Source: a virus. From it: a stretch of 64,000 nt of DNA. How positions within the stretch are numbered: the first letter of the stretch is position 1; each line of letters starts with the position of its first letter. Shown piece after piece: positions 1,922-29,324 of this stretch. Position numbers and translations under genes: made by a program. The notes beneath the pieces are model-generated. The model saw only the letters and a program-made list of their open reading frames with translations, made no database searches and was not told the origin of the DNA. The DNA lies in the IMG/VR virus record IMGVR_UViG_3300027744_000013, positions 1 to 64,000 of that record. The stretch is one strand, 5' to 3'.

Positions 1922-4900
1922 ATGGCTGAATTTAAACTAGGTAGAATCCGCTTTATTTGGAAGAATAATTGGGCTACAGGCGTTACATACGTCAAAGACG
2001 ACATCGTTAGAAACGGTGGAAAAACTTATGTTTGTATACTCGGACATACTGCCGATACTAGTTTTTACACCGATCTAAATAATATTCCAACACGTTGGAA
2101 TCAAGTATCTGACGGTTCGGAATGGAAGGGCGACTGGGCCACTAGTCAATATTATAAAGTCAGTGATCTTGTAAAGTTTGGCGGAAGATTATATCTATGT
2201 AACACTGGCCATACAAGTAATGCATCTGCAACGTCAGGCACTAGTCCTGAGACTACTGCTGGCCTTGAAGCTGACCAAGCAAAATGGGATCTTTATGCAA
2301 CCAGTTTTGACTGGAAAGGCAACTGGTCAACTGCTACTCGATATAAAACTAACGATGTAGTGCGTTATGGCGCAATATCATACGTATGTAATACTGGCCA
2401 CACTTCATCAGCAACTGCCAATTCTGACTCTGACGGCCTAGAACAAGATTTAAGCAAGTGGGATACCTATGCCAAAGGCTTTGACTGGATTGGTAACTGG
2501 GCCACTAGCACACGTTACAAACGAAATGACGTTGTATTATACGGCGGCACAAGTTATGTTTGTAATACTGGACATCAATCAGCATCAACCGCAACCAATG
2601 GCTTAGAACTAGATCAAAGTTTATGGGATTACTTCCATAAAGGTATTGAGTTTAAAGGAACATGGAGCGGAACCACTGTTCGTTATAAAACTAACGATAT
2701 AGTCAAGTACGGTGCTGACCTTTGGATTTGTACTTTAAATCACACTAGTTCAACCACATTCTCAGATGCAACTAACTGGTCGTTGTTTGTAGGCGGCCTA
2801 GAATATGAGAACAGCTGGGATTCAGCTGGCATTTACCAGCCAGGCGATATTGTATCATACGGCGGATACGCTTATGTTGCAACAACAAATAACACTAACA
2901 AAATTCCAACAAGCAATCTTAGTGATTGGGACTTGTTCACCACTGGATTTAACTTTCATGGTGACTGGGTAGGCGCACATGATTATCGTGTAGGCGATGT
3001 ATTACGTTTAAACGGATACACATACGTAGCATTATTAGATCACACATCAGATGTACTAACAAATATCCCCCCAAATCTTACTTATTGGTCAAGATTAAAC
3101 AGTGGTGTTAAGTGGGCCGCAACATCTCAAGTATTTACTGGTATTGCAGGCATTAATATTTCAAGTGCAGGTACCGGTGCAACTTTTGACATTACTAATA
3201 GTAACACAACTTACACAGTTGCTCCAAACTTAGCAGGTACTGGTTATGTAACCGGTGAAACTATTAAGATTTTAGGATCAGATGTTGGCGGCATCAGCCC
3301 AGCAAACGATATTGTACTTACAATCGTTGCAAGCGGCGGACTCATTTCTAGTGTTAGTTCGTCAGTTGGTTATTCAGTATCATGGAAGTCAGGTATTAGC
3401 TATGTGCTAGGTGATGCAGTTGCATTTGGTGTTAATTCATACATTTGTATTTTAGCACATACCGGTAGTGGCGGCAACAGACCAGACGTTGATGTTACTG
3501 GTACTTACTGGAATTTATTAGCCGCAGGTGCATTCCAATCTGCACTTAGTGAGCAAGGCGATATTATATACATGGGCGGCGCTGGCCCAACACGATTACC
3601 AATTGGTACAGACGGACAAGTATTACGTGTTAACGGCACTACACCTTCATGGTCATATTTTGGTGTTATTAATAATCTTGTATATGTTGCACTAAATGGA
3701 GTTGACACAAATGGCGCAGGTCAGGGTCTTACTATAGATAAGCCTTGGAGAACAGTGCGCTATGCCGCAAAACAAATTGAAGACGGTTACTTAAATTCAA
3801 ACGCAACTGAACTAATTAAGAAAAACAAACAATTTTTAATTAAAGAAGTACAAAATTACGTACAATACACATTTACTGTTACAGTATCGGCGTCAAACGC
3901 AACAGTATTCACATGTAACTCAACTGCCAATCTATACGTTGGAATGCCAATTGTCTTTACTGGAACAGTTGGCGGTGTAACAGCAGGTGTAACATATTAT
4001 GTGTTTGACATCCCAGCTGGCGGAACTACATTTGGTATCAAAACAAATTATGCAGATGTAACTCGTAGAACACTAGTCACAGCAACTGGCGCAATGTCCG
4101 GCACTTATTCATATAACGCAAGCAAAACAGAGAGAGATGCAGGCATTGTTGTAGATGCAGTGGCATTTGATATTGGACATAGTGGCACATTTAAAACAAC
4201 CGCCGCAACACTTGCATATTTTACCAGCGCAGGAAATGCATTTATTTCAGGTGTGAACGCATACAATATTATTGCGTTTGTCAGTGCATTAAATTATCTT
4301 AAGACATTGATGTTAAAAGTGATTGCAAATACTGCTCCAGTTAATAACTATCAAACACTAAACGGTGTACTACTAGCAAATCAAGGTCGTCAATTTATTG
4401 ATCCATTGTTAATTGCTGAGTCATCTACCAACATCTTAGTAACTAATTTAGTAGGTATCGTAACTACTGGACTAACCGCAGGAACAGCAAGTGCAATACC
4501 AGCAGTTATTAATCCAGGTACTACTATTTCACTTAAAACTGGTACTTACTCAGAAGTGCTACCAATTGTTGTTCCACAGAACACTGCGGTTGTTGGCGAT
4601 GAATTACGATCAAGTGTAATTCAACCAGCTACACTTAATGATACATTAGTTAATGATAAACCAAAAACTATTGCAGTACTAGAAAGAATTAGATCAATCA
4701 TTCCCAACCTAGTAACAAACACAGCAGTAACTCCTACCGCAGGAAATACCACTGTACAAACATACTTGGGATTTGCCGGCACAACTGCAACAAGTTCTGT
4801 ATCATCAAACACCGCAGTTATTTCCGGAATTATCACAAACGGATTAGGATCAACACCATCATTTACTCTACCAACCCCAACGGGTGGTACAGGTAATGCG

Positions 4901-7900
4901 TTTACCGCAGGTTACTTGGATGCCGCACGTTTGATCTATGCTAACCGAGCTTTCCTACAAGATGAAATTTCATCATGGATACTGGCACAGATCGCAGGCC
5001 CTACTGCACCATTTGTAGGATTTACTTACGGTACTGCTGAACAAGCTAATTGCGAACGCGACGTTGGCTATATTGTCGACGCTGTTCGATATGATTTAAC
5101 CTACGGTGGAAACTTAGAAACTAGCGTGGCAGCACGTTCATATTATTCCTTTGGATCATATGTTGGAGATGCTCCTTCAAAGCTTCGTGCTTTAGCAGTA
5201 CAAGCCCGTATCAAAGATATTATTGACAATATTGCAACGGGAAATACAGCTGGTTGGACCAAAACAACAGCACTAACGCAAGATGTTAGCGGAACTCCAG
5301 GATCTGCACCGGCCGCCGCAACTGCACAATTACGTATTCAAGATATTTACGATACAATTAACACCGGTGTTACCCCAATTACAATTACTCCAGATACATC
5401 GTGGGTAAGCCTTGGATTACGTAACGCTAGTGATGCAATTCAAGCACGTAAATCAGCAATTCAAGCAAGTACGCTATCATGGATTGGTACTACTTATCCA
5501 TCATTGGTGTATAACACAGCAACTTGTTCACGTGACATTGGTTACATTGTTGATGCACTAAGTTTTGATTTGATGTTTGGAAGTAATTTCCGATCAGCTA
5601 AATCAGGAATGGCATATTATCAAGCAGTTGCAAGTGCGCAATATGTAATTGCAAACCAAAAAGCACAATCAGCAGCCGCAGTAAATTACACTGGTTCACT
5701 GATTCAACAAATCACAACTGGTATTACTGGCGATGTAGGCAGTCCTGCATCAGTTAGTTCAGTGGTAACAAACACTGCAATTATTAATAGTATTTTAACA
5801 AACACATTAACCGCAGTTCCAGCATTTGTATTCACTAACCCAACAGGTTATAACACTAGCTTCTTAGCAGGCTACGGTGACGGTAAAGCACAGATTGTAC
5901 AAAATTATGCGTTTATTAAAGATGAAGTTTCTAGTTATTTAAATACAAACTTTAACGCAGTGTGGACAGCACTTGGTGTAGGCGGACAAGCATCTTGCCA
6001 ACAAGACGTTGGATATTTGTTAGACGCAATTCAATATGACATGACATACGGCGGCAATACCCAGTCAGTAATTGCTGGTAGTGCTTACTATTCTAATTCA
6101 GTATTAACTGTGGGCCAAAATGAAAAAGCCGCAACAATTGCTGCCTACACTTGGTTAAAAGGATTTATTGACAATATTGTCATTGCAAATACCGCAGGCT
6201 GGACTAAAAACTCAGCACTAAGTCAAGTAACAACAGGAACAGCTGGATCAGCAGGTGCCGCAACATTTGCACAAGCTCGTGTACAAGATGTAATTGATTG
6301 GATTACCAACGGTGTTTCTCCAGCCGCAATTGCACCAACAGCGGCAATTGCACTAGCAAGTACAGAACTACAAAATAGCTACAATGCATTGCAAGCAGCC
6401 AAGACAGAAATTCAAGGCGATGTGGTTGCTTGGGTTAACAAGTTCTATCAATCAATGAACTTTAATTCTGCAACATGTTATCGCGATGCAGGATATATTG
6501 TTGATGCGTTAAGTTATGATTTAGTATTTGGTACAAACTTTAACTCTGTTAAAGCAGGTATGGCATATTATCGTGCAACAACAAGTGCGCTATATGTACT
6601 CGCTAATCAACTAAATGCCGAAATTGGGGCCGTTAACTTCCTTGGACAAAAAGCAAAACGTATTGTTGCCTACGGCGCCGCAACACAAATTGTTACTATA
6701 TTTGACGACATGATTTTAGCAATAGCGGGCACTGTTTCAACAACTGCTTCTGCAATGTCCGCAGGTGGTGACTTAACTGTTGGTAGCACTGCCGGAATGC
6801 TAGTTGGCATGCCAATTAGAGCAAACGGTTCGCTTGGTGGTATGGGTGTTAACCAAACATATTGGATTGTTTCAATCACAGCACCAACTACAGTTACTAT
6901 TACAGCAACATACGGAAGCGCAACAATCGTTACTGGTGCAGGCACTAACTCTGTTACTATCACAGCTGGTCACGTATCCAACAACGGTATTGAGACATCT
7001 GGTACAAACGTTTACAACAATCAAATTGGTGCTGTTAACGGTGCTGAAATTCTTCGCGCAAACAAAGCATTCCTTGGAAGCGAAGCAACTGCATTTGTAT
7101 CAGCAACATACGGCGGAACTGTAGTAACTACTACTGCGGCAAACAATCAATTAGCTACAAGTCTAGCACACAATTTAACAGCTGGCGATCCAGTTGTGTT
7201 CTCAGGAACAACAATTGGCGGATTAATTGCTGGTACAATTTACTATGTATTGTCAGTACCAAGCACAACAACATTTACACTAACAAACGCACAATACTCA
7301 TCGGTGGTGTTTAACATCGATGATGGTGCAGGTTCGATGACAGTTGGTTACAGTTTTAGTCCAGCATTATGCAAGAGAGACATGGACACGTATATTGATG
7401 CAATTGTATATGATGTAAATTACACTGGAAACTATAAAGCATTACGAGCTATTGAGTTATACAAAAATGCTATAAGCGGATCGGTGTTATCTAACATGTT
7501 CTTACTACGCAACGGCACAGGATTGCGTAACATGACCTTAGTTGGATTAACCGGCGTACTATCTGCCGCAAATCAATACGGCACTTCACGCCCAACTGCT
7601 GGAGCATACAGCTCACTAGATCCAGGATACGGCCCAACCGATACTAACGTATGGATTACACCTCGTTCACCATACACACAAAACTTAACATTGTTTGGTA
7701 CAGCATGTATTGGTATGAAGATCGATGGTGCATTACACGCAGGTGGTAACCGTTCTATTGTAGCTAACGATTATACAACAATTATCAGTGATGGTATTGG
7801 AGTATGGTGTACAGGATCAAATGCGCTGACAGAACTTGTTTCTGTATTTGCATACTATTCATACGCTGGATACTTGGCAGAGCTAGGTGGCAAAATGCGA

Positions 7901-10900
7901 GCAACTAACGGTAACAACTCATATGGTACATATGGTTCGTTAGCTGAAGGTGTTGATACTTACGAAGTGCCTATTACTGCTACAGTTAATAACCGCTTCG
8001 ACCATGCACAAATTGGCGTAGTACTAACAGATAGTACTAATGAAATTTATCGTTTCGAGTATACCAATGCTGGTACACACTACAATACTGCAACTTATTC
8101 ATTAGGCGGCACTGGCTACAATGCGGCAGTAGTGGCAAACGAATTCCGTGACGCAGGTATTTTTGAAGCTAGAATTTTATCAAACGGCGCTAACTACGCT
8201 AACACAACCAACGTTGCACAGGGCGGCTCGACAACCAGCATCACACTAGCGGCCACTGACGCGGCAATTAGTGCGGCATACGTTGGTATGCGTGTTATTG
8301 TAACAGGCGGATCTGGTGTGGGACAAACTGGATACTTTACAACATACAATTCAGGTACAAAGTCTGGTATTATTGCTAGAGAAAGTTTTGATTACAAAAC
8401 AGTAACCAGCGCAGGGTCAAGTTTAATAACAGTTGCGTCAACTGAGCAGATGACTGCAAACATGCCTGTGATATTTACAGGTACAATATTAACTGGAATG
8501 GGTACTTTAACACTTAATACCATTTATTATGTAATTGAGACAACTATTACTGCAACACAATTTAGCGTTGCAAGTAGCTCCGGCGGCACAACGCCGGTAG
8601 CAGTTGGTAGTTCTACCAGCGGTGGCGGTCCATTGTACATGCATGCCGTAGGTTGGGATCATATTATTCCAGGAACTGCTATTGCTACTAACTTAGACTT
8701 GACTAGCGCATATAGTGTTGAACCAAGAGTAGTGGTTGATAGTCCAGCACTATCAGCAACTGCAACCACAATTACAAGTGTTACAGCACCTGTGATCACA
8801 TACGGTGACGTAAACTCTGCATATAACGGCTCGGGATCAGCTGGTGTTGCCTCAACAGGCGGTACTGGAACACTAGCAACATTTACAGTTACTAGAACTG
8901 GAACTGCGTATAACGTTGCCACTAACTTTCCAGGCACGGGTTATAAACTTAATGATACATTAACTATTTTAGGAACAGACCTAGGCGGCACTGTTACTAA
9001 TAATGTCACTGTGGTTGTTAATAATGTTAGCGTAGCAGGTGCTATTCAAAACTTTACATTCTCAGGCCAAGGGGCAGGCGGGTACTATGTAATTACCTCG
9101 GCAGCAAGTTCTGCTACACAGATTAGTACAGACGGTATTACGTGGGTAGCAGGCGGCGCTATGCCAGCAGTTGGCACGTGGACCGCAGTTGCTTACGGTG
9201 CAGGCCGTTGGGTAGCTGCCGCAAGCGGCACAACAAGTTCAGGGTATTCACTTGATCCAACATCAGCATGGTCTGGCGGTGGCGCAATGCCAAGCGGGTC
9301 AAACTGGATTGCAATGACTTACGGTAGTAACCAGTTTATGGCCATTGCTACAGGCAGCGCAAATGCCGCATATTCAACCAACGGAACTGCATGGTTTGCA
9401 ACTAGCGCATTACCTGCAAACACTACCTGGACTGATATTGCCTACGGTAACGGTACGTTTGTAGCAATCGCCAGTGGCGGAACACAAGCCGCAACCAGTA
9501 CAGATGGTATTTCGTGGGTTACAAGAACATTACCAGCAAGTGATCAATGGTCAAGTGTAGCGTTTGGTAACAACAGATTTGTAGCAGTTGCAGGCGGAAT
9601 AGGTCAGGGCAATATTGCCTACTCTAAAGATGGTATTACATGGATATTGTCTGCACAACCGTTACAGTGGCCATACGGTGGATCACAAACACTACCGGCA
9701 TCCAAAGTTAGATACGGTCATGGTGTATTCGTTGCAACCGGTTTGGTCGGCATATCACCCATTCAAACAAGAATTAAGTACTCATATGACGGTGTTGTGT
9801 GGAGATCATATGCAACAACAGCAACCGGCAACTACAGTGCAGTAGCATTTGGTAATGCAAACAGTGTTGGTCGTTGGGTATTTGCCCAAGACGGATCAAC
9901 TGTTGCAAATTATATGAATATCGGTGCAAGAGCACAAGGCCGCGCAAAAATTTCTAATAATCTAGTTAGTGAAATTAGAATTGTTGAACCGGGCAGTGGA
10001 TACACATCAACTCCAACGATTATTTTAGTGGATCCTAACCAAACAGCAAGCGGTACATGGCAAGTTAGAACTGGCAACGGTGTACTGGCTAATCCATCGT
10101 TTAACAACAGGGGATTACAGTATGCTACAGCATTGGCAACTGTAACCGGTAACGGTTATGCAGATTCTTTCCAAACAGGTTATTACTTAAATGTTAATTC
10201 ATTGAATAGTAATCCAACACCGGGATCTAATATTGTACTTAATAACAACAGCAACTACTACAAGTTAGTTTCAGCTAATGCGTATGTGGGTACTGATAGA
10301 AATAGTTTCCAAGGCTGGATTGCCGCAGGCGGAAGTGCTCCTTATACAGCTAGATTCCAAATGAGTCCTGCGCTAACAGCAAGCAATACTCCGGTACATG
10401 GCGAAATAGTAACAATGCGTATCAAGTATTCACAAGTTCGATTAACTGGACATGACTTCTTAAGTATTGGTACAGGTGGTACAACTACCACAAATTACCC
10501 AAATACTCCAACACAGTCACCGGATCCTAACAAAGAAACTGTTGGTAACGGCGGTGGCCGCGTATTCTACACATCAACTGACCAAGACGGTAACTTCCGT
10601 GTTGGTACATTGTTTAGCGTTCAGCAAGCAACCGGTGTTGCTAGTATTAATGCTGATGCGTTTAACTTAGCAGGTTTGAACTCGTTAACACTGGGTTCTG
10701 TTGCATTAGGTGGTTCTGGTGCAACAATTACATCGTTCTCGACAGATCAGTATTTTACGGCCAACAGCGATAATGTAGTTCCAACACAAAAAGCTATTAA
10801 ATCATACATTAGTAGCCAAATTGGTGGCGGATCTAGCGCATTGAACGTAAATACACTAACAGCTGGTGTTATATACATTGCTGGTAATAGTATTAGTACT

Positions 10901-10996
10901 ACTACTGGTGTTCAAATTAACGTGACAGCAACGATGAATTTCACTGGCGGGATCAACGGGTTGCCAGTAGCAATGGATTTCTTACTTTTAGGATAA
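1922..10996 (+). CDS. Giant virion structural / tail-fibre protein (3024 aa), multi-domain
   Basis: Starts MAEFKLGRIRF. N-terminal W-x-G-x-W...Y-x2-ND-x-V-x-YGG-x2-Y-x-C repeats (CBM5/12-like), helical C-x-RD-x-GY repeats, a probable beta-helix segment, propeller repeats, and a C-terminus shared with the upstream ORF. Confidence 0.85.
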   Translation: MAEFKLGRIRFIWKNNWATGVTYVKDDIVRNGGKTYVCILGHTADTSFYTDLNNIPTRWNQVSDGSEWKGDWATSQYYKVSDLVKFGGRLYLCNTGHTSNASATSGTSPETTAGLEADQAKWDLYATSFDWKGNWSTATRYKTNDVVRYGAISYVCNTGHTSSATANSDSDGLEQDLSKWDTYAKGFDWIGNWATSTRYKRNDVVLYGGTSYVCNTGHQSASTATNGLELDQSLWDYFHKGIEFKGTWSGTTVRYKTNDIVKYGADLWICTLNHTSSTTFSDATNWSLFVGGLEYENSWDSAGIYQPGDIVSYGGYAYVATTNNTNKIPTSNLSDWDLFTTGFNFHGDWVGAHDYRVGDVLRLNGYTYVALLDHTSDVLTNIPPNLTYWSRLNSGVKWAATSQVFTGIAGINISSAGTGATFDITNSNTTYTVAPNLAGTGYVTGETIKILGSDVGGISPANDIVLTIVASGGLISSVSSSVGYSVSWKSGISYVLGDAVAFGVNSYICILAHTGSGGNRPDVDVTGTYWNLLAAGAFQSALSEQGDIIYMGGAGPTRLPIGTDGQVLRVNGTTPSWSYFGVINNLVYVALNGVDTNGAGQGLTIDKPWRTVRYAAKQIEDGYLNSNATELIKKNKQFLIKEVQNYVQYTFTVTVSASNATVFTCNSTANLYVGMPIVFTGTVGGVTAGVTYYVFDIPAGGTTFGIKTNYADVTRRTLVTATGAMSGTYSYNASKTERDAGIVVDAVAFDIGHSGTFKTTAATLAYFTSAGNAFISGVNAYNIIAFVSALNYLKTLMLKVIANTAPVNNYQTLNGVLLANQGRQFIDPLLIAESSTNILVTNLVGIVTTGLTAGTASAIPAVINPGTTISLKTGTYSEVLPIVVPQNTAVVGDELRSSVIQPATLNDTLVNDKPKTIAVLERIRSIIPNLVTNTAVTPTAGNTTVQTYLGFAGTTATSSVSSNTAVISGIITNGLGSTPSFTLPTPTGGTGNAFTAGYLDAARLIYANRAFLQDEISSWILAQIAGPTAPFVGFTYGTAEQANCERDVGYIVDAVRYDLTYGGNLETSVAARSYYSFGSYVGDAPSKLRALAVQARIKDIIDNIATGNTAGWTKTTALTQDVSGTPGSAPAAATAQLRIQDIYDTINTGVTPITITPDTSWVSLGLRNASDAIQARKSAIQASTLSWIGTTYPSLVYNTATCSRDIGYIVDALSFDLMFGSNFRSAKSGMAYYQAVASAQYVIANQKAQSAAAVNYTGSLIQQITTGITGDVGSPASVSSVVTNTAIINSILTNTLTAVPAFVFTNPTGYNTSFLAGYGDGKAQIVQNYAFIKDEVSSYLNTNFNAVWTALGVGGQASCQQDVGYLLDAIQYDMTYGGNTQSVIAGSAYYSNSVLTVGQNEKAATIAAYTWLKGFIDNIVIANTAGWTKNSALSQVTTGTAGSAGAATFAQARVQDVIDWITNGVSPAAIAPTAAIALASTELQNSYNALQAAKTEIQGDVVAWVNKFYQSMNFNSATCYRDAGYIVDALSYDLVFGTNFNSVKAGMAYYRATTSALYVLANQLNAEIGAVNFLGQKAKRIVAYGAATQIVTIFDDMILAIAGTVSTTASAMSAGGDLTVGSTAGMLVGMPIRANGSLGGMGVNQTYWIVSITAPTTVTITATYGSATIVTGAGTNSVTITAGHVSNNGIETSGTNVYNNQIGAVNGAEILRANKAFLGSEATAFVSATYGGTVVTTTAANNQLATSLAHNLTAGDPVVFSGTTIGGLIAGTIYYVLSVPSTTTFTLTNAQYSSVVFNIDDGAGSMTVGYSFSPALCKRDMDTYIDAIVYDVNYTGNYKALRAIELYKNAISGSVLSNMFLLRNGTGLRNMTLVGLTGVLSAANQYGTSRPTAGAYSSLDPGYGPTDTNVWITPRSPYTQNLTLFGTACIGMKIDGALHAGGNRSIVANDYTTIISDGIGVWCTGSNALTELVSVFAYYSYAGYLAELGGKMRATNGNNSYGTYGSLAEGVDTYEVPITATVNNRFDHAQIGVVLTDSTNEIYRFEYTNAGTHYNTATYSLGGTGYNAAVVANEFRDAGIFEARILSNGANYANTTNVAQGGSTTSITLAATDAAISAAYVGMRVIVTGGSGVGQTGYFTTYNSGTKSGIIARESFDYKTVTSAGSSLITVASTEQMTANMPVIFTGTILTGMGTLTLNTIYYVIETTITATQFSVASSSGGTTPVAVGSSTSGGGPLYMHAVGWDHIIPGTAIATNLDLTSAYSVEPRVVVDSPALSATATTITSVTAPVITYGDVNSAYNGSGSAGVASTGGTGTLATFTVTRTGTAYNVATNFPGTGYKLNDTLTILGTDLGGTVTNNVTVVVNNVSVAGAIQNFTFSGQGAGGYYVITSAASSATQISTDGITWVAGGAMPAVGTWTAVAYGAGRWVAAASGTTSSGYSLDPTSAWSGGGAMPSGSNWIAMTYGSNQFMAIATGSANAAYSTNGTAWFATSALPANTTWTDIAYGNGTFVAIASGGTQAATSTDGISWVTRTLPASDQWSSVAFGNNRFVAVAGGIGQGNIAYSKDGITWILSAQPLQWPYGGSQTLPASKVRYGHGVFVATGLVGISPIQTRIKYSYDGVVWRSYATTATGNYSAVAFGNANSVGRWVFAQDGSTVANYMNIGARAQGRAKISNNLVSEIRIVEPGSGYTSTPTIILVDPNQTASGTWQVRTGNGVLANPSFNNRGLQYATALATVTGNGYADSFQTGYYLNVNSLNSNPTPGSNIVLNNNSNYYKLVSANAYVGTDRNSFQGWIAAGGSAPYTARFQMSPALTASNTPVHGEIVTMRIKYSQVRLTGHDFLSIGTGGTTTTNYPNTPTQSPDPNKETVGNGGGRVFYTSTDQDGNFRVGTLFSVQQATGVASINADAFNLAGLNSLTLGSVALGGSGATITSFSTDQYFTANSDNVVPTQKAIKSYISSQIGGGSSALNVNTLTAGVIYIAGNSISTTTGVQINVTATMNFTGGINGLPVAMDFLLLG

Positions 10997-11693: not shown

Positions 11694-12473
11694 ATGTCAA
11701 TACTACGAGATTTACTATTAACCACTAGCGTAACCAACATTCCGTTTAAACCATTGCAACTTGCAGTGTTTGGCGGACGTGAGGGTACTGGTGTACAAGA
11801 CGGCGGAAGATGTTGCTGTTGGAAAATTCCATCTGGTACAACTTGGGCTACTTTTGAAGGCTGGGGTGCAGGCGGAGATGGGCCAGGAGCATGTTGCTGC
11901 CAAGGACAATATCGTAGCGGCGGAACTGGTCAGTATGCTAAGAGAACATTGACTGTTAGCGCATCTACTGAATATTTTGTTCTTTGTGCGGCAGGATCCG
12001 GATGTTGTGCCCAATCATGCTGTGGACAATGTGGATTTCCAACGTTTGTATTGTGCTGTAACGGCACACAAACAATGTGTGCGCCTGGCGGATACGGCGG
12101 ATGTGGTGTATGTCACCACATGGGTGGATTGTCATGTACAGGCATTTGCCAATCAGGTCAAGGTGGCGGTAACAGAGGTTGTCAAGGCAATGGTGACATA
12201 TTCTATGGTTCACTATCAGAACCAGATAAAGAAAGTAATTTCTGCGTAAATCAACACTGGCACTATCAGCCAATGACCTTAAAATATGGTCCTAATTTTA
12301 GAAGAAGCTTTGACCCATGCGCCATGCAAATGACACGGATGGGTTGTGACTACTGGGGTAGCCAAGTGCAATCATGGCCCGGCGGCCCAGGAGCTGGAGC
12401 ACAAGCATGTGGCGGCCCATGTTGCTGGGGTTACTTTGGCACAGGCGGTCTAGTATTAATTACATACGGTTAA
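11694..12473 (+). CDS. Cys/Gly-rich fibre-associated protein, paralogue 1
   Basis: Gly-rich domain motif W.IP.G.T...FE.WGAGG, about 26 Cys, ends GGLVLITYG. Confidence 0.75.
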   Translation: MSILRDLLLTTSVTNIPFKPLQLAVFGGREGTGVQDGGRCCCWKIPSGTTWATFEGWGAGGDGPGACCCQGQYRSGGTGQYAKRTLTVSASTEYFVLCAAGSGCCAQSCCGQCGFPTFVLCCNGTQTMCAPGGYGGCGVCHHMGGLSCTGICQSGQGGGNRGCQGNGDIFYGSLSEPDKESNFCVNQHWHYQPMTLKYGPNFRRSFDPCAMQMTRMGCDYWGSQVQSWPGGPGAGAQACGGPCCWGYFGTGGLVLITYG

Positions 12474-12484
12474 AAGGATTTAAA

Positions 12485-13156
12485 ATGACAGTTGAACAAA
12501 AAAAAGAAAACGAAAGAATTGAGAAAACATTTGTATTTGATCTTCCGGATCAATACCTTTATCAAACCAATTCTCTAAACAGAACAGGTACTTGGACATA
12601 CAAAGGCCCAAGATATCTATGGATTTTTGCTGATGCAGAAACTAGAAAAGTCAAAGGTTCGTTCCATTACACTGAACATGATAACGGCGATGTTGTTCCA
12701 ACTCCAGAAGGGCAAATTAAAATCAAAGTAGATGCCAATGTAAATCCTGATATTGCATCATTATGCCATAACGAATGGGACTACGGGGTAGATTTGCCAC
12801 AATACGTGGAACAACTACCTTTGGGACTAACTTATGGTCACAGCGATCCGCAAGCGCCGGACCATACATACGAGTTAACTGAAATACAATATGATGCTGA
12901 AACTGCAACATTTGTAAAACCATATCCCTGGAAGAAACCACATATTACTTGGGAAGAAATCATGCGCTGGCGAGATATGAATTTAAATCATTCAGATCTA
13001 CAGTATAAAAATGCTATTAATCCTGAGAAAAAAGCCAAGTGGGCAGAATATAGACAGTATCTTAGAGACTTACCAGCTACGTTTGAGGGTGTTGATCCTT
13101 GGAAGATTCCATTTCCACCAAGTCCCGACCTTGATGCTGTTCAACCAGGGGTATAA
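12485..13156 (+). CDS. Tail-fibre assembly chaperone-like protein, paralogue A
   Basis: AAGGA RBS before MTVEQ. C-terminal W..I..WRD..L..SD...WAEYRQYLRDLP motif of phage tail assembly chaperones. Confidence 0.7.
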   Translation: MTVEQKKENERIEKTFVFDLPDQYLYQTNSLNRTGTWTYKGPRYLWIFADAETRKVKGSFHYTEHDNGDVVPTPEGQIKIKVDANVNPDIASLCHNEWDYGVDLPQYVEQLPLGLTYGHSDPQAPDHTYELTEIQYDAETATFVKPYPWKKPHITWEEIMRWRDMNLNHSDLQYKNAINPEKKAKWAEYRQYLRDLPATFEGVDPWKIPFPPSPDLDAVQPGV

Positions 13157-13159
13157 CAC

Positions 13160-13912: not shown

Positions 13913-13924
13913 ACGGGAAAAGTT

Positions 13925-14665: not shown

Positions 14666-14669
14666 TAAC

Positions 14670-22292: not shown

Positions 22293-25200
22293 ATGGCAAA
22301 GAAAAGAATAACAAATTATGTGTTTCAACCAGGCGTATCTAAAAGCAGTAACGCCTATCCGAATGCTCACGCACTACTAACTGTTAACAAATCTTTTATA
22401 CAAAAAGAAGCAAGAGCATGGATTAGCCAACAAATTATTCTTGATAGTGCTAATAATTTATATCCGGATGCTGTTAGACTATTAACACTTAATAAACAAT
22501 TTATTTTAGATGAGATCTCAGCGTGGACAACTGCGCAAGTTGCAACCGCAAATGTCACATCTGTATTTTTTGGATATGTATACGGTGCAACTGAAATTGC
22601 AAAATGTAAACGCGATGTGGGGTATCTTGTTGATGCGTTAGCTTACGATATTCGATACGGTGGTAATGAACGAGTAAGTTTTGTTGCAAGCCAGTACTAC
22701 CTAAGCGGCACAATACAAGTTATTAATGCTCAAGTTGAAACAGCAATCCAAACAAAGTTATGGAATTTAATTCAAGGCTTTGTAATGCAAAAGATTGTTT
22801 ACTCTCCAACTGATCAAAGTCCGGTTACCAGTACACAGGTTACAACAGGCGATGCTGGTGAAACAGCGGCAGTTGCTCGAGCGTTTGTGTTATCGCCAAT
22901 GATCAGCAATGTTATCAACGGTGGATTATCAACTATACCGGCTACAATATATTCAGTATATAATTTTCCGGGATACACATACGATTCATATAAATGCGAA
23001 CGTGATGTGGGATATGTTATTGACGGGTACTTGCATGATTTACAATACGGTGGAAACGTCAAGACACGATTGATCAGTAGTCGTTATTGGGACGGCGAAT
23101 ATCCTCAAGTTGACGGCGATCGCTCACCTGAAATTGCAACACATACTTTTATTCGTGATTTAATAAACGACTATATTTTTAGCCAAGCGGCATATACTCC
23201 ATTACAAATTACAGAACCACTACAAGCACTACCAAATAATGGAGAGGCTGGCGCAAATGCAAGAATTACAACTCTAGCAGGAATTGTTGTTACTGTTATT
23301 ACCAACGGATTATCATCATTACCAGCAATAGTAAACGGAGTAACATCTCTTAAAATTCAAGGGTACTACACACTTGACAAAATACTGTTAATTACAAATT
23401 CAAAAACAAATCAAATTATTTACAATTTTAGCGACCCACAGTTAGGCGCAACAGCAACGTTTGATGCACCCCATAACAGTAACGGACGTGATCGTGATGA
23501 AGATTACCCATCATATTTACAAACCACTGATACAATTACTGTTTTAGATTTAGAAGCGGATACTAGTACTGGATCCTCTACTGATGATATTCAGATATTT
23601 GTTGAAGCAGAAGAACAAAAAACTAGACCATATGACTTTGGTACAGACGCTATTGAACGTATGCGTGTTGCTCAACCCCAGTCTATGCTTGACGCTGACT
23701 TTGAGTATGGACTACAACCTACCAAATGGCAGGCGATTGGAGTTGCTCGCGGATATCCTTCTGTGTATGAAATTCCAGGTACTGACACTGCTGTTGTTTC
23801 AGTAACTACTGATGCTTCAACCGGAACTGGCGGTGTTGGTAACTCATTAATCACAGTTACTACACAAGGCCCCCATGGATTTACCGCAGGAACGCCTATT
23901 ACAATTCGAGCACTAGCAAACACTATTAGCGGATTTAGTCGAGCAGAAGGCACATTTATTATTATTTCCGTACCCACTCCGGCTACATTTACATATTATG
24001 CTACTGCTAAAGTAGGTACAAGTAATGGGCAAGTGCTTGCAACTAGTTACTCACAACTAAGAAAAGGTGCGTTCTATACAGGAGCATCAATCGGCACTCC
24101 TACAATCAGCGTGAACAGTAACGGTGTTAATAGTTCGTTCACTAGTAAGTTTATTACACCAATAACCTCAGATCAGATTGCAGTAGCAGCCACACTGCCT
24201 CTACTAAATGTCCCATTAAGTGGTACTGGTATAAATGCTGGCACGCAAGTTACTGGCACAGTTGGCCCAGGTGGCCTTGCAGTAACAGCCAACATTAGTG
24301 ATCCAGTATCAACCGGTGATACTTCGATCACAGTAGTTGATGCAACTGGCGTACTAGAAGGTATGGCCATTGATAACGGAACTGGTACTGCAATATTTGT
24401 AAGTACAATTTCTTCTAACACTATTAGTTTTACACAACCACTAACTGCTAATCGTGGTGGCGCATCTCAATCTTACACTAATAAAACTGGTACAAACATT
24501 GTACCCGGTGGTACTGGCGCACTGTTTGATGTTGATCGAGTAAGTGGAGTTTATACAAATATTAGTATTAGTGATCCCGGACTTGACTATGTTGACGGCA
24601 GTAGATTAGTAATTCTAGGTAGTGACTTAGGCGGTGCAACACCTGCAAACGATTTAACTATTAAAATATCTTCAACAATTAATCTTGATACATTTAACGG
24701 TGTAGTACAAAACGGCACTAGTGGTACAGGTACCGGCGCTGAGTTTGATATACTACTTGAATCAGGCGGTGCATACGATGTAACTAATATTGCAACAGCT
24801 GGATTGGATTATGCAGTGGGCGATACAATAACACTATTAGGTACAAATCTTGGTGGAGCAAGTCCTGCAAATAATGCAACTGTTACCGTAGCAACAGTGA
24901 CTCGTAATTATTCAAGTATTGCACAAGACAGCACAACCGGACTAGGTAGCACTGCAACATTTAATATTTCTAGAACTGGAGCATTATACACATTAACCGT
25001 ATCTACAAAAGGTGTTGACTACACGCCCGGGGATACTGTTACAATACTTGGTACACAACTTGGCGGCGCAACACCCGATAACGACTTAACATTTACTGTT
25101 GTTGATGTGGATATTAATAATGGTATCAATGCCTTTGATACGCTAACCGGTATTGCTACGGGTACTGGCGGAATCTTTGGCATTGCCAGTGTTACTGGTA

Positions 25201-28200
25201 TTTGTAACTTTGTTGGCGGATTAATTAATACTATTTCAGTTGTTTCGGGAACTAGTATAAGCGGTGAAAGAGCTTACGCGGCTATCATACAAGACGCAAC
25301 TAGCGCATCAGGATCCGGCGCAATATTTGATATTGAAACCAGCGGCGGAATTTATGATGTAGTGATTGTTGATCCAGGTTTAACCTATGCGTTTGGCGAC
25401 ACCATTACTATTTTAGGAACTCAGCTAGGCGGCTTGAGTCCTGCAAATGATTTAGAACTTACAGTAACTAGTGCAAGCTCTTTTGGAGGCGGCATATTAG
25501 CATTTAACACAGCAGGCGTACCATCAAGCGTTGACGATAACTTTCTAACATTGACTGCAACCGCTATTGCACCAGGTGATGGTGCATCATTTGATATCTC
25601 TCGCGCAGGCGGATTGTATACATCTGTTGTGGTTAATTTACCGGGAACTGGCTACGAAATAAACGATAGGATTGAATTAAACGGTGCAAATTTTGGCGGC
25701 GTAAGCCCTACCAATAATGTTACACTAACTGTTACTGGTGTAAATGTATCAGACGGTAGTATTACTACATCAACAGCATCTGGTACTGCGGTATCGGGTT
25801 CAGCACTTGAGTTTTGGTCAGCAGTTGCATTAAGTGAACCTACTACTGCATCTATTCCAGATGCTACATCACTTACAACGTCGGCTATTGCCACTGTACA
25901 GATTGCATTTGCTAGTCCACACGGATTAGTTCCAGGAGCAAACATACTAGTTGATATTTCAAGCGCAGGAACTAATCATGCACTTGCTAAAGGTCCATTC
26001 TACGTTGAATCAGTTCCAAGCACAACAACACTAAGATATACAGCAAGGACAACTGGTAACATTGACACTGGGGTTGCACTAGTTGGTTTAGTTTATGCTA
26101 GACCAGACAGTTATTTTATTCATAGACCATACGACGGCGGTGTACAGTTAGGCACGGGCGGTCCACAGCACGGCGCTCAAGCAATTCGTATGAGTAAGAA
26201 ATATATTCGTTACCAATCTGGTAAAGGTATTATGTATACTACTGGTGCGTTGTTTGCACCAAGTTATAATTTACAATCAATTAGCGCAGATGGAACATCT
26301 GTTGGTGCGTATATTACCGTAACAACAGATGACGTGGACCATGGTTGTCAAGTTGGTGGCCGAATTAGAATTATTGGTGTTGATACTGCTGGATATAACG
26401 GCGAGTACATTATCAGCGATGTGGTAACTGAGCGACAATTTAAAGTACAAGCATATACCACATTGGCAAATGTGTATGGTTCAATCACAACAGCGGCTCA
26501 AATGTCAATTGTTGGCTGGCATGGGGCTACAGTACGTGCTGGAACATTTGATGATCAAAACGGTATGTTCTGGGAATATGACGGCACTGAATTAGCAGTT
26601 GGTAAACGTTCTAGTACATTACAATTATCCGGTATATCAACTATCAATAGAGATAGTAATACCTTAACCGGTACTAATACACGTTTTCGTGACCAAGTTA
26701 AGGCAGGCGATCGTATTGTTATTAAAGGCATGACTCATGTTGTATCAGGCGTTCAAAGCCAAACACTACTGACTGTTACTCCGGATTATCGTGGTGCAGT
26801 TAACGCGGTACAATCAAAGGTATGTTTGGTACAAGATTTAATTATTAAACAAAGTAATTTTAACCTAGACAGACTAGACGGTACTGGACCAAGCGGATAT
26901 AATTTAGACATTAGTAAAATGCAGATGATTGGTATGCAATGGTCATGGTACGGTGCTGGATTTATTGATTACATGTTAAGAGGTGCTGATGGAAACTATG
27001 TGTTTGCACACCGTATTCGTAACAGTAACACTAATACAGAAGCGTATATGCGTACTGGTAACATGCCAGTGCGTTATGAAGTTATTAACGAAGGTGCTCT
27101 TGGTAAATTAAAATCATCAATTACTGCAACACAAACAACAATACCATTAATTGATGCAAATCAATTTCCAAATGAAGCAGGTACTGTTTATATAGACAAC
27201 GAACTAATTCAATTTGGTGGTAAAACAAGCAACACATTAATTAATTGTGTACGTTCAAGCCCAATGGTATTGTTTACCGGCGGTGCTCAGCGGTCATTCA
27301 GAGCAGGACTTGCATCAGTACACGAATATAATACCGGAGTAATACTAGTAAGCAATACTATCACTCCAATTATTAGTCACTGGGGTAGTGCAATGTTAAC
27401 AGACGGACGCTTTGACGAAGATCGAGGATATTTGTTTAACTATGCATCTACAGGTATTCAAGTATCAACTACAAAACAAACTGCGTTTTTAATTCGATTA
27501 GCACCAAGTGTATCTAACGCTATTATTGGTGACTTAGGCGAACGAGAACTTATTAACCGTGCGCAATTATTGTTAAAATCCATTGCTGTAACATCTGACT
27601 CGGGCACAGGTGGTCTAGTGGTTGAAGGAGTATTGAATCCTCAAAACTATCCAATTGACCCAGCCGCAATTTCTTGGTCGGGACTAGCAGGTAGTTCGGC
27701 TGGCGGCCAACCATCGTTTGCACAAGTAGCGCCAGGTGGTTCTGTATCATGGGCAGGCGGTGCAACTGTTACAACTTCAACAGCAACTACCACTGCGGCC
27801 TTAACAGGTACTGCGTCAGTTCCGAACAGCGCACTATTTCAATCAGCAATTGGCTCAGCTGTGTTGTATGTAACCAAAGCAAGTTGGGAAACATTGGGAG
27901 CGGCAGTTGGATTCTCTGTTGCGGCAAGCGAAACAAAATACCCAAGTGGTACTACTGTTTCCTCAGTAACTGCTAACCCTAATCCAATTGCAACAACACT
28001 GGGCGTTATTACAGGTACTGCAACTATTCCACCTAGTGCAAACTTTAAGACACCTGCTGGATCTAATCAATTATTTTTCACACAGGCTTCATGGAATGCG
28101 TTACAAGGCGCAGTTGGCACTGCAATTCTTAGCTCAGACTTTGCACCAGGAACAGTAGTTTCAGTTGTTGCTGGCCCTGCGCTGGCAGCAGGACAGAACT

Positions 28201-29324
28201 ATTATACCATTACAACAAGTACTAACTCGTTAGTTCCACATAATCCAGTAACAACTAATTTACAAACTTACTATCTTCAAGCATTTAACAGCATTCAGGT
28301 TACTGCATATTTTAACGTGGGACAAACTTATGCTCCTTATCAAATTAACGATAGTATTACTATATCAGGTAATCCGAACGTTCCACAAGTCAACGGTACT
28401 TGGGCTGTAACAGCATGTACCACATCATATGTACAGTTTAACGTGTCAGGTTCTCTTAACCTTAACGGTGGCTCAAACGGCTTTGTGGTAAACAATAATG
28501 CACTTAATACGGTGTCATTCTTTCTTAGCGGCTCCGCAGGATTAGGTGCAACAACTTTAAACATTACACAAGCAAGTTGGAATGCACTACCAATTGGTAC
28601 TCGAGTAGTGGGTAACACTGTTAATGACACTGCAAAATTCGTAGGCGGAACAACAATTTCAGCAATCAGTGCGGTAAGAACATTTGCAGGTACTGCTTAC
28701 TTCACGATAACATTTAATAGTGGATTGCTTGCGGCGCAACCTGCAGGGACATCGGTGACATTTAGTTTCACAGCATATTACGTCATAGGACTAAGCAGAA
28801 CGGCATCCAGTGCAATTGTTGCTAATGCTAGCGTAGCATTTACGCCTGCAGTTATTGCAACAAACACGTCATTCTTATATTTCACACAAGCATCATGGGA
28901 ATCACTAACATCGGGATACGGTGCTACAACCGGAACTGAAATTGTTGACCCGACTAAATTTTCGTCAGGTACAAAGATTGCTAGTATCGGTGCTCTAAGC
29001 TCGTTTGGTGGAACTGCATACTATCGTGTTAACTTTACACAAAGCTCAGTAACTTCTATTGCGGCTGCAAGTACAATTACATTCCAATTTGGTTTACCTG
29101 CTTATGCACAACCTGGTGAAACTGTATTCTCGTTCATTGCGGCTCCGGGCGGCGCACAAACATTGGACTTGGGTGAATTGAAAGAATTGACTAATACTAC
29201 CCTAGGTGGCAGAGGAACTTATCCAAACGGCCCAGACGTATTAGCCATTAACGTTTATCGTGCGTCAGGTGCTGGTAGTATTCCTACTAACATTGTTGTA
29301 CGTTGGGGTGAAGCGCAGGCTTAA
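22293..29324 (+). CDS. Giant virion structural protein (2343 aa)
   Basis: Two N-terminal KC.RDVGY..D...D..YGGN units, multiple G..Y..GD..TILG..LGG..P.NDL repeats, .HG....G..I.I beta domains and LYFTQASW repeats. Confidence 0.85.
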   Translation: MAKKRITNYVFQPGVSKSSNAYPNAHALLTVNKSFIQKEARAWISQQIILDSANNLYPDAVRLLTLNKQFILDEISAWTTAQVATANVTSVFFGYVYGATEIAKCKRDVGYLVDALAYDIRYGGNERVSFVASQYYLSGTIQVINAQVETAIQTKLWNLIQGFVMQKIVYSPTDQSPVTSTQVTTGDAGETAAVARAFVLSPMISNVINGGLSTIPATIYSVYNFPGYTYDSYKCERDVGYVIDGYLHDLQYGGNVKTRLISSRYWDGEYPQVDGDRSPEIATHTFIRDLINDYIFSQAAYTPLQITEPLQALPNNGEAGANARITTLAGIVVTVITNGLSSLPAIVNGVTSLKIQGYYTLDKILLITNSKTNQIIYNFSDPQLGATATFDAPHNSNGRDRDEDYPSYLQTTDTITVLDLEADTSTGSSTDDIQIFVEAEEQKTRPYDFGTDAIERMRVAQPQSMLDADFEYGLQPTKWQAIGVARGYPSVYEIPGTDTAVVSVTTDASTGTGGVGNSLITVTTQGPHGFTAGTPITIRALANTISGFSRAEGTFIIISVPTPATFTYYATAKVGTSNGQVLATSYSQLRKGAFYTGASIGTPTISVNSNGVNSSFTSKFITPITSDQIAVAATLPLLNVPLSGTGINAGTQVTGTVGPGGLAVTANISDPVSTGDTSITVVDATGVLEGMAIDNGTGTAIFVSTISSNTISFTQPLTANRGGASQSYTNKTGTNIVPGGTGALFDVDRVSGVYTNISISDPGLDYVDGSRLVILGSDLGGATPANDLTIKISSTINLDTFNGVVQNGTSGTGTGAEFDILLESGGAYDVTNIATAGLDYAVGDTITLLGTNLGGASPANNATVTVATVTRNYSSIAQDSTTGLGSTATFNISRTGALYTLTVSTKGVDYTPGDTVTILGTQLGGATPDNDLTFTVVDVDINNGINAFDTLTGIATGTGGIFGIASVTGICNFVGGLINTISVVSGTSISGERAYAAIIQDATSASGSGAIFDIETSGGIYDVVIVDPGLTYAFGDTITILGTQLGGLSPANDLELTVTSASSFGGGILAFNTAGVPSSVDDNFLTLTATAIAPGDGASFDISRAGGLYTSVVVNLPGTGYEINDRIELNGANFGGVSPTNNVTLTVTGVNVSDGSITTSTASGTAVSGSALEFWSAVALSEPTTASIPDATSLTTSAIATVQIAFASPHGLVPGANILVDISSAGTNHALAKGPFYVESVPSTTTLRYTARTTGNIDTGVALVGLVYARPDSYFIHRPYDGGVQLGTGGPQHGAQAIRMSKKYIRYQSGKGIMYTTGALFAPSYNLQSISADGTSVGAYITVTTDDVDHGCQVGGRIRIIGVDTAGYNGEYIISDVVTERQFKVQAYTTLANVYGSITTAAQMSIVGWHGATVRAGTFDDQNGMFWEYDGTELAVGKRSSTLQLSGISTINRDSNTLTGTNTRFRDQVKAGDRIVIKGMTHVVSGVQSQTLLTVTPDYRGAVNAVQSKVCLVQDLIIKQSNFNLDRLDGTGPSGYNLDISKMQMIGMQWSWYGAGFIDYMLRGADGNYVFAHRIRNSNTNTEAYMRTGNMPVRYEVINEGALGKLKSSITATQTTIPLIDANQFPNEAGTVYIDNELIQFGGKTSNTLINCVRSSPMVLFTGGAQRSFRAGLASVHEYNTGVILVSNTITPIISHWGSAMLTDGRFDEDRGYLFNYASTGIQVSTTKQTAFLIRLAPSVSNAIIGDLGERELINRAQLLLKSIAVTSDSGTGGLVVEGVLNPQNYPIDPAAISWSGLAGSSAGGQPSFAQVAPGGSVSWAGGATVTTSTATTTAALTGTASVPNSALFQSAIGSAVLYVTKASWETLGAAVGFSVAASETKYPSGTTVSSVTANPNPIATTLGVITGTATIPPSANFKTPAGSNQLFFTQASWNALQGAVGTAILSSDFAPGTVVSVVAGPALAAGQNYYTITTSTNSLVPHNPVTTNLQTYYLQAFNSIQVTAYFNVGQTYAPYQINDSITISGNPNVPQVNGTWAVTACTTSYVQFNVSGSLNLNGGSNGFVVNNNALNTVSFFLSGSAGLGATTLNITQASWNALPIGTRVVGNTVNDTAKFVGGTTISAISAVRTFAGTAYFTITFNSGLLAAQPAGTSVTFSFTAYYVIGLSRTASSAIVANASVAFTPAVIATNTSFLYFTQASWESLTSGYGATTGTEIVDPTKFSSGTKIASIGALSSFGGTAYYRVNFTQSSVTSIAAASTITFQFGLPAYAQPGETVFSFIAAPGGAQTLDLGELKELTNTTLGGRGTYPNGPDVLAINVYRASGAGSIPTNIVVRWGEAQA

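Follow-up and report, generated by a model that had tools for sequence, protein, structure and literature searches.

The DNA analysed here, the window, is a 64,000-nt stretch of viral sequence (positions 1 to 64,000 of IMG/VR record IMGVR_UViG_3300027744_000013). Near its start, nucleotides 1922-10996 of the plus strand translate as a single open reading frame (ORF) of 3,024 amino acids (aa), whose product has eight CBM_5_12 repeats at its N-terminus, six phycobiliprotein-like globin domains in its middle and a beta-rich C-terminus. The whole of the repeat region with which this report is concerned falls inside it. Matches to Pfam CBM_5_12 (1.1e-35) and to the PHROG tail-fibre families phrog_9851 (9e-172), phrog_4527 and phrog_5342, together with neighbouring genes for a tail-fibre protein, a fibre-assembly protein, a baseplate wedge connector and a sheath-related protein, identify the product, as far as sequence can, as a giant virion protein of tail-fibre or baseplate type. 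Judged from sequence and predicted structure, the six mid-protein domains are members of the bilin-binding globin clade (phycobiliproteins, BBAGs and photoglobins), of which they form a phage-specific branch that occurs in tandem in fibre and baseplate proteins. An earlier reading of this DNA, the original prediction, had proposed globin-fold phycobiliprotein homologues fused into a tail or virion protein as a single-chain (alpha-beta)2. Its placement of the repeats in a virion protein is borne out by the fibre families, by the tail-gene neighbours and by the presence of related units in a gp7-like gene of cyanophage P-HM1.

A regular-expression scan for [C/T]-x-[R/Q]-D-x5-D-A finds this motif at residues 736, 1044, 1202, 1359, 1519 and 1817 (first nucleotides 4127, 5051, 5525, 5996, 6476 and 7370), where it reads TERDAGIVVDA (Thr736), CERDVGYIVDA (Cys1044), CSRDIGYIVDA (Cys1202), CQQDVGYLLDA (Cys1359), CYRDAGYIVDA (Cys1519) and CKRDMDTYIDA (Cys1817). 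The five Cys-containing units described originally, the 158, 157 and 160 aa that separate the first four, and a Cys-less unit near 4125 are all recovered. The five motif cysteines are the sole cysteines in residues 666-1928 of the protein. Six units are returned when a profile built from 30 units is run on the ORF, the central four at E 1e-46 to 2e-56 and the outer two at 2e-8 and 1e-6. Pairwise identity is 44% between units 1 and 3 and 39% between units 2 and 4, as against 26-36% for cross-type pairs, and typing of the units in 90 homologous ORFs with separate A and B profiles reveals that ABAB and ABABAB runs are common, being present in dozens of homologues. The repeats and their two subtypes, whose A-B-A-B alternation had been predicted, are real. 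The array consists of four contiguous canonical domains in that order and two more that have a small beta domain in the loop between helices B and E.

Each canonical domain extends from approximately Cys-54 to Cys+106, and all six are on the plus strand. Domain 0 (3794..4447; aa ~625-842; profile match aa 725-805, E 2.4e-8) has helix B (NKQFLIKEVQNYV, aa 635), a beta insertion of ~80 aa in its B-E loop and a helix E with T-E-R-D, in which Thr736 occupies the motif position and there is no Cys. Domain 1 (4889..5371; aa ~990-1150; profile E 8.9e-47) is of A type with Cys1044 in C-E-R-D. In the pair model described below it has helices A, B, E, F, G, a long loop and H; its structural alignment to phycobiliprotein residues 33-164 gives Z 11-13, and its sequence alignment to CpcA spans residues 34-103. 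Domain 2 (5363..5845; aa ~1148-1308; profile E 1.9e-56), of B type with Cys1202 in C-S-R-D, is the second half of that pair. Domain 3 (5834..6316; aa ~1305-1465; profile E 1.2e-46), the A-type domain with 44% identity to domain 1, has Cys1359 in C-Q-Q-D. Domain 4 (6314..6796; aa ~1465-1625; profile E 1.9e-55) is of B type with Cys1519 in C-Y-R-D and, when compared alone with Pfam PF00502, scores 13.6 bits over profile positions 72-149. Domain 5 (7037..7501; aa ~1706-1860; profile match aa 1806-1858, E 1.3e-6) has helix B (ANKAFLGSEATAF, aa 1713), a beta insertion of ~85 aa and a helix E with C-K-R-D (Cys1817), followed by a beta-rich region. [The ~80-aa beta domains inserted in the B-E loops of domains 0 and 5 (nt 3878-4120 and 7106-7360; aa ~652-732 and ~1729-1812) are alike (…PIVFTGT.GG..AG..YYV…) and give a weak Pfam hint of the endosialidase beta-barrel PF12195, E 0.019.] The unit boundaries drawn originally had to be shifted: the helix 'I..II..G' before a 'G..P' loop, with which a unit was then taken to begin, belongs as helix H to the domain before it.

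The nearest relatives of the phage units are phycobiliproteins. With aa 977-1643 as phmmer query against all Protein Data Bank sequences there were two matches, both to C-phycocyanin alpha (E 0.069), and the alignment takes in helix B, the B-E loop and helix E. The 30-unit profile, run against the sequences of solved structures, gave 35 matches of which 34 were phycobiliproteins, nearly all phycocyanin alpha (best E 0.0013), with the matches spanning helices A/B to E; a 71-row profile of the A-B pair had the same outcome. Pfam PF00502, whose curated cut-off is 22.2 bits, scores 11.3 bits on the window protein, which is below the cut-off, and passes it in the homologues P0004 (33.3 bits) and P0009 (27.3 bits), over profile positions 72-155; a precomputed PF00502 match is present in many homologues. 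It was also the sole recurrent family when 71 A-B pairs were scanned singly against Pfam (9/71 at E <= 0.01, best 2e-5). Comparison by hhalign of 29 re-cut phage domains with natural cpcA and cpcB genes, taken from metagenome contigs, yielded a probability of 87.8% and E 3.3e-6 over 27 columns, all in the E helix. In the phmmer, profile and hhalign alignments the motif is in register with CpcA Cys84, Arg86 and Asp87, and the positions common to phage units and CpcA/CpcB are Cys84, Arg86, Asp87, Gly89, Tyr90, Tyr97 and Gly102. The phycocyanin strings quoted in the original prediction match natural CpcA genes from metagenomes. [No match was found by blastn for nt 4800-7600 among GenBank phages, and no usable one for domain 2 in the ESM Atlas.]

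AlphaFold2 (AF2) models were obtained for a single unit (domain 4, from a 30-row alignment) and for an A-B pair (aa 946-1280, from a 71-row alignment). The single-unit model has pLDDT 73; its Foldseek list consists of phycobiliproteins throughout, and the top nine in VIA are allophycocyanin, ApcE, phycoerythrin and a photocobilin bilin domain (Z 10.6-8.9, root mean square deviation (rmsd) 2.2-3.3 A). The pair model has pLDDT 92.6 and pTM 0.90. All 50 of its top 50 Foldseek matches are phycobiliproteins (target-normalised TM 0.52-0.66), and in VIA it reaches Z 13.0-10.9 with phycobiliproteins (allophycocyanin, phycoerythrin, ApcE) and 10.2 with the photocobilin bilin domain. The VIA matches to allophycocyanin, phycoerythrin and ApcE at Z 11.4-13.0 cover 118-162 residues, and the core matches superpose all of the globin core, helices A to H, over 118-138 residues with rmsd 2.5-3.2 A. 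Model residues ~49-203 map onto phycobiliprotein residues 33-164, on the basis of which the domain is taken to comprise helices A, B, E (with the Cys), F, G, a loop of ~25 residues, and H. A globin-like fold is predicted with high confidence, and because the pair pTM is high, A and B are modelled as packing in a fixed manner. The globin-fold homology proposed originally is one on which sequence, profile and predicted structure agree. The Foldseek comparison suggested with it came out as expected, with phycobiliproteins at the top, and the PF00502 comparison did so for homologues and failed for the window protein itself. It is fold, motif and profile matches jointly that would place the domains in the bilin-binding branch.

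Phycobiliprotein alpha-beta monomers are built by an X-Y hairpin and by Asp13-Arg93 contacts. No N-terminal X-Y hairpin was found in the phage domains, the core structural alignments beginning at phycobiliprotein residue ~33; two structural matches alone extend over the hairpin, with rmsd ~6 A. Arg93, which is invariant in CpcA/CpcB, is Asp in the phage units. Since the hairpin is absent and Arg93 is replaced, the units are regarded as core bilin-globin-like domains, and the single-chain (alpha-beta)2 of the original prediction is not borne out in the form proposed. The ligand-site residues are retained in the phage units and the oligomer-interface residues are lost.

Conservation was assessed in 636 units from 90 ORFs, which have 416-424 distinct sequences at the motif columns. 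Among distinct units the equivalent of Cys84 is Cys in 88.7% (Thr in 4.5%), that of Arg86 is kept in 91% and that of Asp87 in 97.6%. For the other positions the figures are 82% (Asp93), 88% (Ala94), 100% (Asp98), 86% (Asn104) and 97% (Tyr114). Poor conservation of the Cys, Arg and Asp, or a fold that is not globin-like, had been named originally as what would count against the idea, and neither was encountered. The alignment shows the attachment motif to be under strong constraint. Cyanophage copies, with K-C-x-R-D-[IL]-G-[YH], are closer still to the CpcA sequence K-C-A-R-D-I-G-Y-Y. [The units of the P-HM1 gene 'YapH' (78174-89204) have C-x-D-D, an Arg to Asp variant of C-x-R-D.]

The unit family is present in at least 596 IMG/VR stretches. 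A degenerate DNA motif scan of 185,579 cellular genomes returned 8 stretches, 6 of them true units, all in giant ORFs on contigs of metagenome-assembled genomes (MAGs), and these are probably binned phage DNA. [Three contigs of the Crocinitomicaceae MAG JBDNIA01 (freshwater Bacteroidota) carry giant ORFs with units; they may be phage contigs that were binned together with their host, and so a hint to the host, or a product of mis-binning.] Among GenBank phages a tblastn search for the unit matched 74 records, every one of them a cyanophage (Synechococcus 59, 'Cyanophage' 13, Prochlorococcus 2), and the matched genes carry the annotation tail fibre, short tail fibre or virion structural protein. 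A neck-protein query retrieved 948 T4-like GenBank records; ~484 are non-cyanophage and the unit is in 0 of those ~484. In P-HM1 the units are in a gp7-like baseplate gene between gp6 and gp8 (PHM1_087) and in the giant 'YapH' gene (PHM1_097). Copies per protein range from 1 to ~38. [A complete relative of 399,796 bp has a 6,682-aa ORF with ~38 units (G026:C1:~104000-122700) and, in the genome as a whole, 43 units over three giant ORFs. In S-PM2 (NC_006820.1, 163063-175398) many tRNA features are given inside the 11.3-kb 'short tail fiber' coding sequence, which looks like an error of coordinates or annotation in the RefSeq record.] The family is almost confined to phages, where it is in structural proteins, and the module is common to two distant phage lineages of illuminated waters.

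One of these lineages is that of the window. Its virus record is 108 kb and is rated 29% complete, and by such ratings its relatives are ~360-400 kb when complete. The window's sheath-related protein has 45-65% identity to that of clade relatives and 33-37% to that of Sinorhizobium phage Phosso, Agrobacterium phage Atu_ph07 and Pseudomonas phage PA5oct. The source is an uncultured freshwater jumbo myovirus of putatively ~370 kb, distant kin of the Atu_ph07, Phosso and PA5oct group. The units are found clade-wide, in 7/7 records reached via the sheath marker; a census of large clade genomes with a sheath-like marker gave mostly short contigs and one new large record. Searches of GenBank phages found neither a unit nor a reductase match in cultured relatives of the jumbo clade. 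psbA was found in 0/20 jumbo-clade records, and CpeT and NblA in 0/5 large ones, both complete genomes being included each time. That the window phage is a cyanophage was considered and dropped, as these three genes were not found in the clade and the nearest cultured relatives infect Proteobacteria; probably it is not one.

Genes for a pigment supply occur in the clade. In a relative of 278 kb (G001) the genes for heme oxygenase and bilin reductase are adjacent, behind those for Hsp70, Hsp20 and ClpS. [On its minus strand, G001:35448-38831, the arrangement is operon-like: an Hsp70 fragment, Hsp20, ClpS, heme oxygenase and a ferredoxin-dependent bilin reductase.] This reductase has 336 close relatives in IMG/VR at 73-87% identity. 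All ten reductase-bearing contigs of at least 128 kb also have units and heme oxygenase; two of them are complete genomes, with 43 units in one. The cassette never adjoins the fibre gene and, where present, is >100 kb away. The nearest cultured relative of the reductase, at 50% identity, is that of Pelagibacter phage Mosig, in which the cassette abuts neck genes and no unit was found. Why phages of non-photosynthetic hosts carry such cassettes is an acknowledged open question (PMC11480375).

The other lineage, that of the cyanomyoviruses, includes phages whose adsorption has been studied with respect to light. Darkness prevents the adsorption of P-HM1 and P-HM2 (Liu et al., PMC6628666) but not that of P-SSM2, P-SSP7 and P-GSP1, and the adsorption of S-PM2 is light-dependent, independent of host photosynthesis and of unknown mechanism (PMC6628666). 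Nine phage genomes were scanned for units with the profile and for cpeT with PF06206. Units and cpeT are both present in S-PM2 (9 units), P-HM1 (4), P-HM2 (4) and S-WAM2 (13), and both were absent from P-SSM2, P-SSP7, P-GSP1 and Mosig; DSL-LC03, with 4 units and no cpeT, is the exception to a concordance seen in 8/9 genomes. For the six phages of known phenotype, adsorption and units are concordant in 6/6. In S-PM2 and S-WAM2 cpeT is 1.5-3.4 kb upstream of a unit-bearing giant gene. [The proposal that cpeT always accompanies units was rejected, since DSL-LC03 and the jumbo clade lack cpeT and have units all the same.]

Because the phycobiliprotein-like fold and the attachment motif have been kept, the phage particles may carry bile pigment and perhaps sense light. 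C-x-R-D is the bilin-attachment motif of phycobiliproteins and of BBAGs, and the latter attach their bilin themselves (PMC10151467). In the infected cell each domain would take up a linear tetrapyrrole and link it to the motif Cys, either without a lyase, as in BBAGs, or with CpeT in the marine cyanomyoviruses. The pigment would come from the phage's own heme oxygenase and bilin reductase cassette in the jumbo clade and from the host in the case of cyanophages. The assembled fibre would then bear pigment, which could make it light-responsive and so gate adsorption. Taken whole, this explanation, a bilin-carrying fibre of infected-cell origin that responds to light, is given a probability of roughly 0.4 (0.42). 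Its parts differ: covalent attachment of bilin to the units is a tentative proposal, somewhat short of an even chance; that fibres or baseplate arms with covalent bilins act as virion-borne photoreceptors gating adsorption is doubtful; and a light-responsive fibre, taken as a step in itself, is rather unlikely. A photoprotective or purely stabilising role for the pigment is less likely than adsorption gating.

Several observations weigh against a pigmented fibre. No gene for heme oxygenase, bilin reductase, CpeT or CpeS is in the window's 108-kb record, which is ~29% of the genome. The reductase is missing from three clade contigs that have units and a completeness of 60-75%; were every genome to have the cassette, it would go unseen in all three with a probability of ~0.03. 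Mosig and P-SSM2 make bilins yet have no units, so pigment genes have other uses. With those three contigs and the unit-less cassette of Mosig, the co-occurrence of units and cassette is compatible with a supply line and is no proof of one. [That the bilin cassette serves the fibres alone was rejected, since Mosig and P-SSM2 have pigment genes without units and some unit-bearing contigs lack the cassette.] The phenotype comparison amounts to 2-3 independent positives, P-HM1 and P-HM2 being one species, and two of its dark-adsorbing negatives are small podoviruses without any giant fibre gene. Globin-coupled sensors are nearly equal in structure to phycobiliproteins as VIA matches of the A-B pair (Z 10.6-10.7), and the profile-profile similarity is confined to the 27 E-helix columns. 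The residues conserved most are the equivalents of Asp98, Asp87 and Tyr114, not the Cys, and the phage units have extra conserved acidic residues, Asp93 and Asp98, without phycobiliprotein counterparts.

Some of these features would be explained if the domain were a pigment-free structural module, a one-time bilin-binding globin now serving as rigid helical beads that lengthen or space a fibre or baseplate arm, with the C-x-R-D...D-A..Y-D..G.N...Y stripe as a buried polar network for folding or for packing with neighbours. This is a serious contender and could well be right, if at less than even odds. Spacer modules would be expected to vary freely in copy number, as these do, from 1 to ~38 per protein, and the A-B pair is modelled as a single rigid unit (pTM 0.90). 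The absence of phycobiliprotein counterparts for the most invariant residues, Asp98 and Tyr114, and the clade members with units in which a bilin reductase was not found are also in its favour, and literature searches found no report of pigmented phage particles. What it leaves unexplained is why exactly three chromophore-contact residues should survive in units otherwise 20-30% identical, why the motif Cys is the sole Cys in ~1,260 residues, and why the units are restricted to phages with access to bilin. It is further at odds with the pattern of loss, the phycobiliprotein interface residues (Arg93, the X-Y hairpin) having gone and the ligand residues having stayed.

Metal sites are common in T4-type fibres. 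The conserved site could hold another ligand, for example a metal bound by the Cys together with Asp, Asn and Tyr, or the Cys could form an inter-chain disulfide or cross-link that stabilises the assembled fibre. The one conserved Cys per domain and the extra E/F-helix residues Asp93, Asp98, Asn104 and Tyr114, absent from phycobiliproteins, speak for such a role, which is nevertheless improbable: no particular ligand is indicated by the data, and the motif and its register are exactly those of the bilin site. In ~11% of units, moreover, Thr, Trp or Ala stands in place of the Cys with the Arg and Asp kept, so a non-covalently retained ligand fits better than a cross-link. Convergence or chance, by which an unrelated helical repeat would have come to have a short phycocyanin-like motif, is very improbable indeed. 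It could appeal to the marginal E-values against single phycobiliproteins (0.0013-0.07), to the score of the window protein under the Pfam cut-off (11.3 bits), to the 27 columns that are all hhalign covers, and to the ease with which helical folds attain middling Z-scores. Four independent methods, however, put phycobiliproteins first and almost exclusively, the globin core superposes in full from A to H (118-138 residues, rmsd 2.5-3.2 A), the curated Pfam cut-off is exceeded in homologues, and helix B aligns too, beyond the motif.

A second giant virion protein, of 2,343 aa, is encoded at 22293..29324 (plus strand) and, by the unit profile, has two phycobiliprotein-like units near its N-terminus, at nt 22458-22823 (K-C-K-R-D, E 4.2e-20) and nt 22947-23192 (K-C-E-R-D, E 2.6e-16). 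[An extra B-type helix precedes the first of them, an arrangement taken originally for nested units.] Elsewhere in the 3,024-aa protein, each of the eight CBM_5_12 (chitin/carbohydrate-binding) repeats at 1922-3120 (aa 1-400) has one conserved Cys, in Y-[VI]-C-x-x-x-H, and at ~8900-9900 (aa ~2330-2650) there are S-x-D-G-x-[TS]-W repeats, seen by eye and without a Pfam match, which resemble BNR/Asp-box repeats and suggest a beta-propeller. Downstream, at 11694-15686 (plus strand), paralogous proteins of ~250 aa (phrog_4205, function unknown), called Cys-rich in the original prediction, are interleaved with a protein matching tail-fibre-assembly. At 15714-17534, on the opposite (minus) strand between tail genes, a Nol-like carbamoyltransferase is encoded (phrog_1601, E 2e-169).

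If a bilin-carrying, light-responsive fibre is the true explanation, it would account for the dependence of S-PM2, P-HM1/2 and similar cyanomyoviruses on light for adsorption, for the purpose of phage cpeT and, in part, for the heme oxygenase and PcyX/PcyA cassettes in phages of non-photosynthetic hosts. Virions with bound pigment would be the first known to have a light-absorbing cofactor, and the small, possibly self-attaching domains would be candidate fluorescent tags. Without pigment, the fold of an antenna protein would have been recruited as a structural bead in two phage families. The units make experimentally accessible the light-dependent adsorption of cyanophages (PMC6628666), bilin synthesis by phages of non-photosynthetic hosts (PMC11480375) and the role of the CpeT-type lyase gene.

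Bilin-binding globins are known so far as antenna phycobiliproteins, bacterial BBAGs and photoglobins, and the tandem virion-fibre branch is new to the searched literature, full-text searches having turned up no published description of phycobiliprotein-like domains in structural proteins of phages. The phage units share with the phycobiliprotein alpha and beta subunits (PF00502) the globin-type helix set A-B-E-F-G-H, a helix E that bears C-x-R-D-[IV]-G-Y (Tyr at +13, Gly-Gly at +18/+19), 'A-N' in helix B, and a domain size of ~160 aa in two alternating subtypes. The large B-E loop insertions of domains 0 and 5 have a parallel in ApcE, which has one at the same place. Unlike phycobiliproteins, the phage units lack the X-Y hairpin, have Asp for Arg93 and the extra Asp98, Asn104 and Tyr114, and form head-to-tail arrays, 1 to ~38 units long, within a virion protein. 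They are encoded by phages, probable non-cyanophages included, and are known from sequence and models, which give no sign of disc or rod assembly or of pigment.

In being a core globin without the hairpin, outside photosynthetic antennae, the units are, by motif description and structure, like BBAGs and photoglobins. The latter are likewise without the phycobiliprotein hairpin (PMC8717448). C-x-R-D is the motif of BBAG-1 and BBAG-3 and C-x-Q-D that of photoglobins (PMC10151467), the C-Q-Q-D of domain 3 being such a variant. In some relatives of the window phage, both complete clade genomes among them, heme oxygenase and bilin reductase are encoded in the same genome as the units; neither was found in the window's own 108-kb record. 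BBAGs and photoglobins differ in being small cytoplasmic or signalling proteins of bacteria, encoded beside the reductase. The same domain as in the window is present in the giant proteins of cyanomyoviruses (the product of the 11.3-kb 'short tail fiber' gene of S-PM2, PHM1_087, PHM1_097, S-WAM2 gp162, and that of DSL-LC03), which are structural proteins of the tail end with 3,000-4,800 aa, with 4-13 units per genome, E-values down to 1e-27 and K-C-x-R-D kept. These phages are Kyanoviridae, in contrast to the Atu_ph07-like jumbo clade of the window, and the identity is 25-38%. Whereas the cyanomyovirus giants have differing receptor-type domains at their N- and C-termini, the window protein begins with its eight CBM_5_12 repeats.

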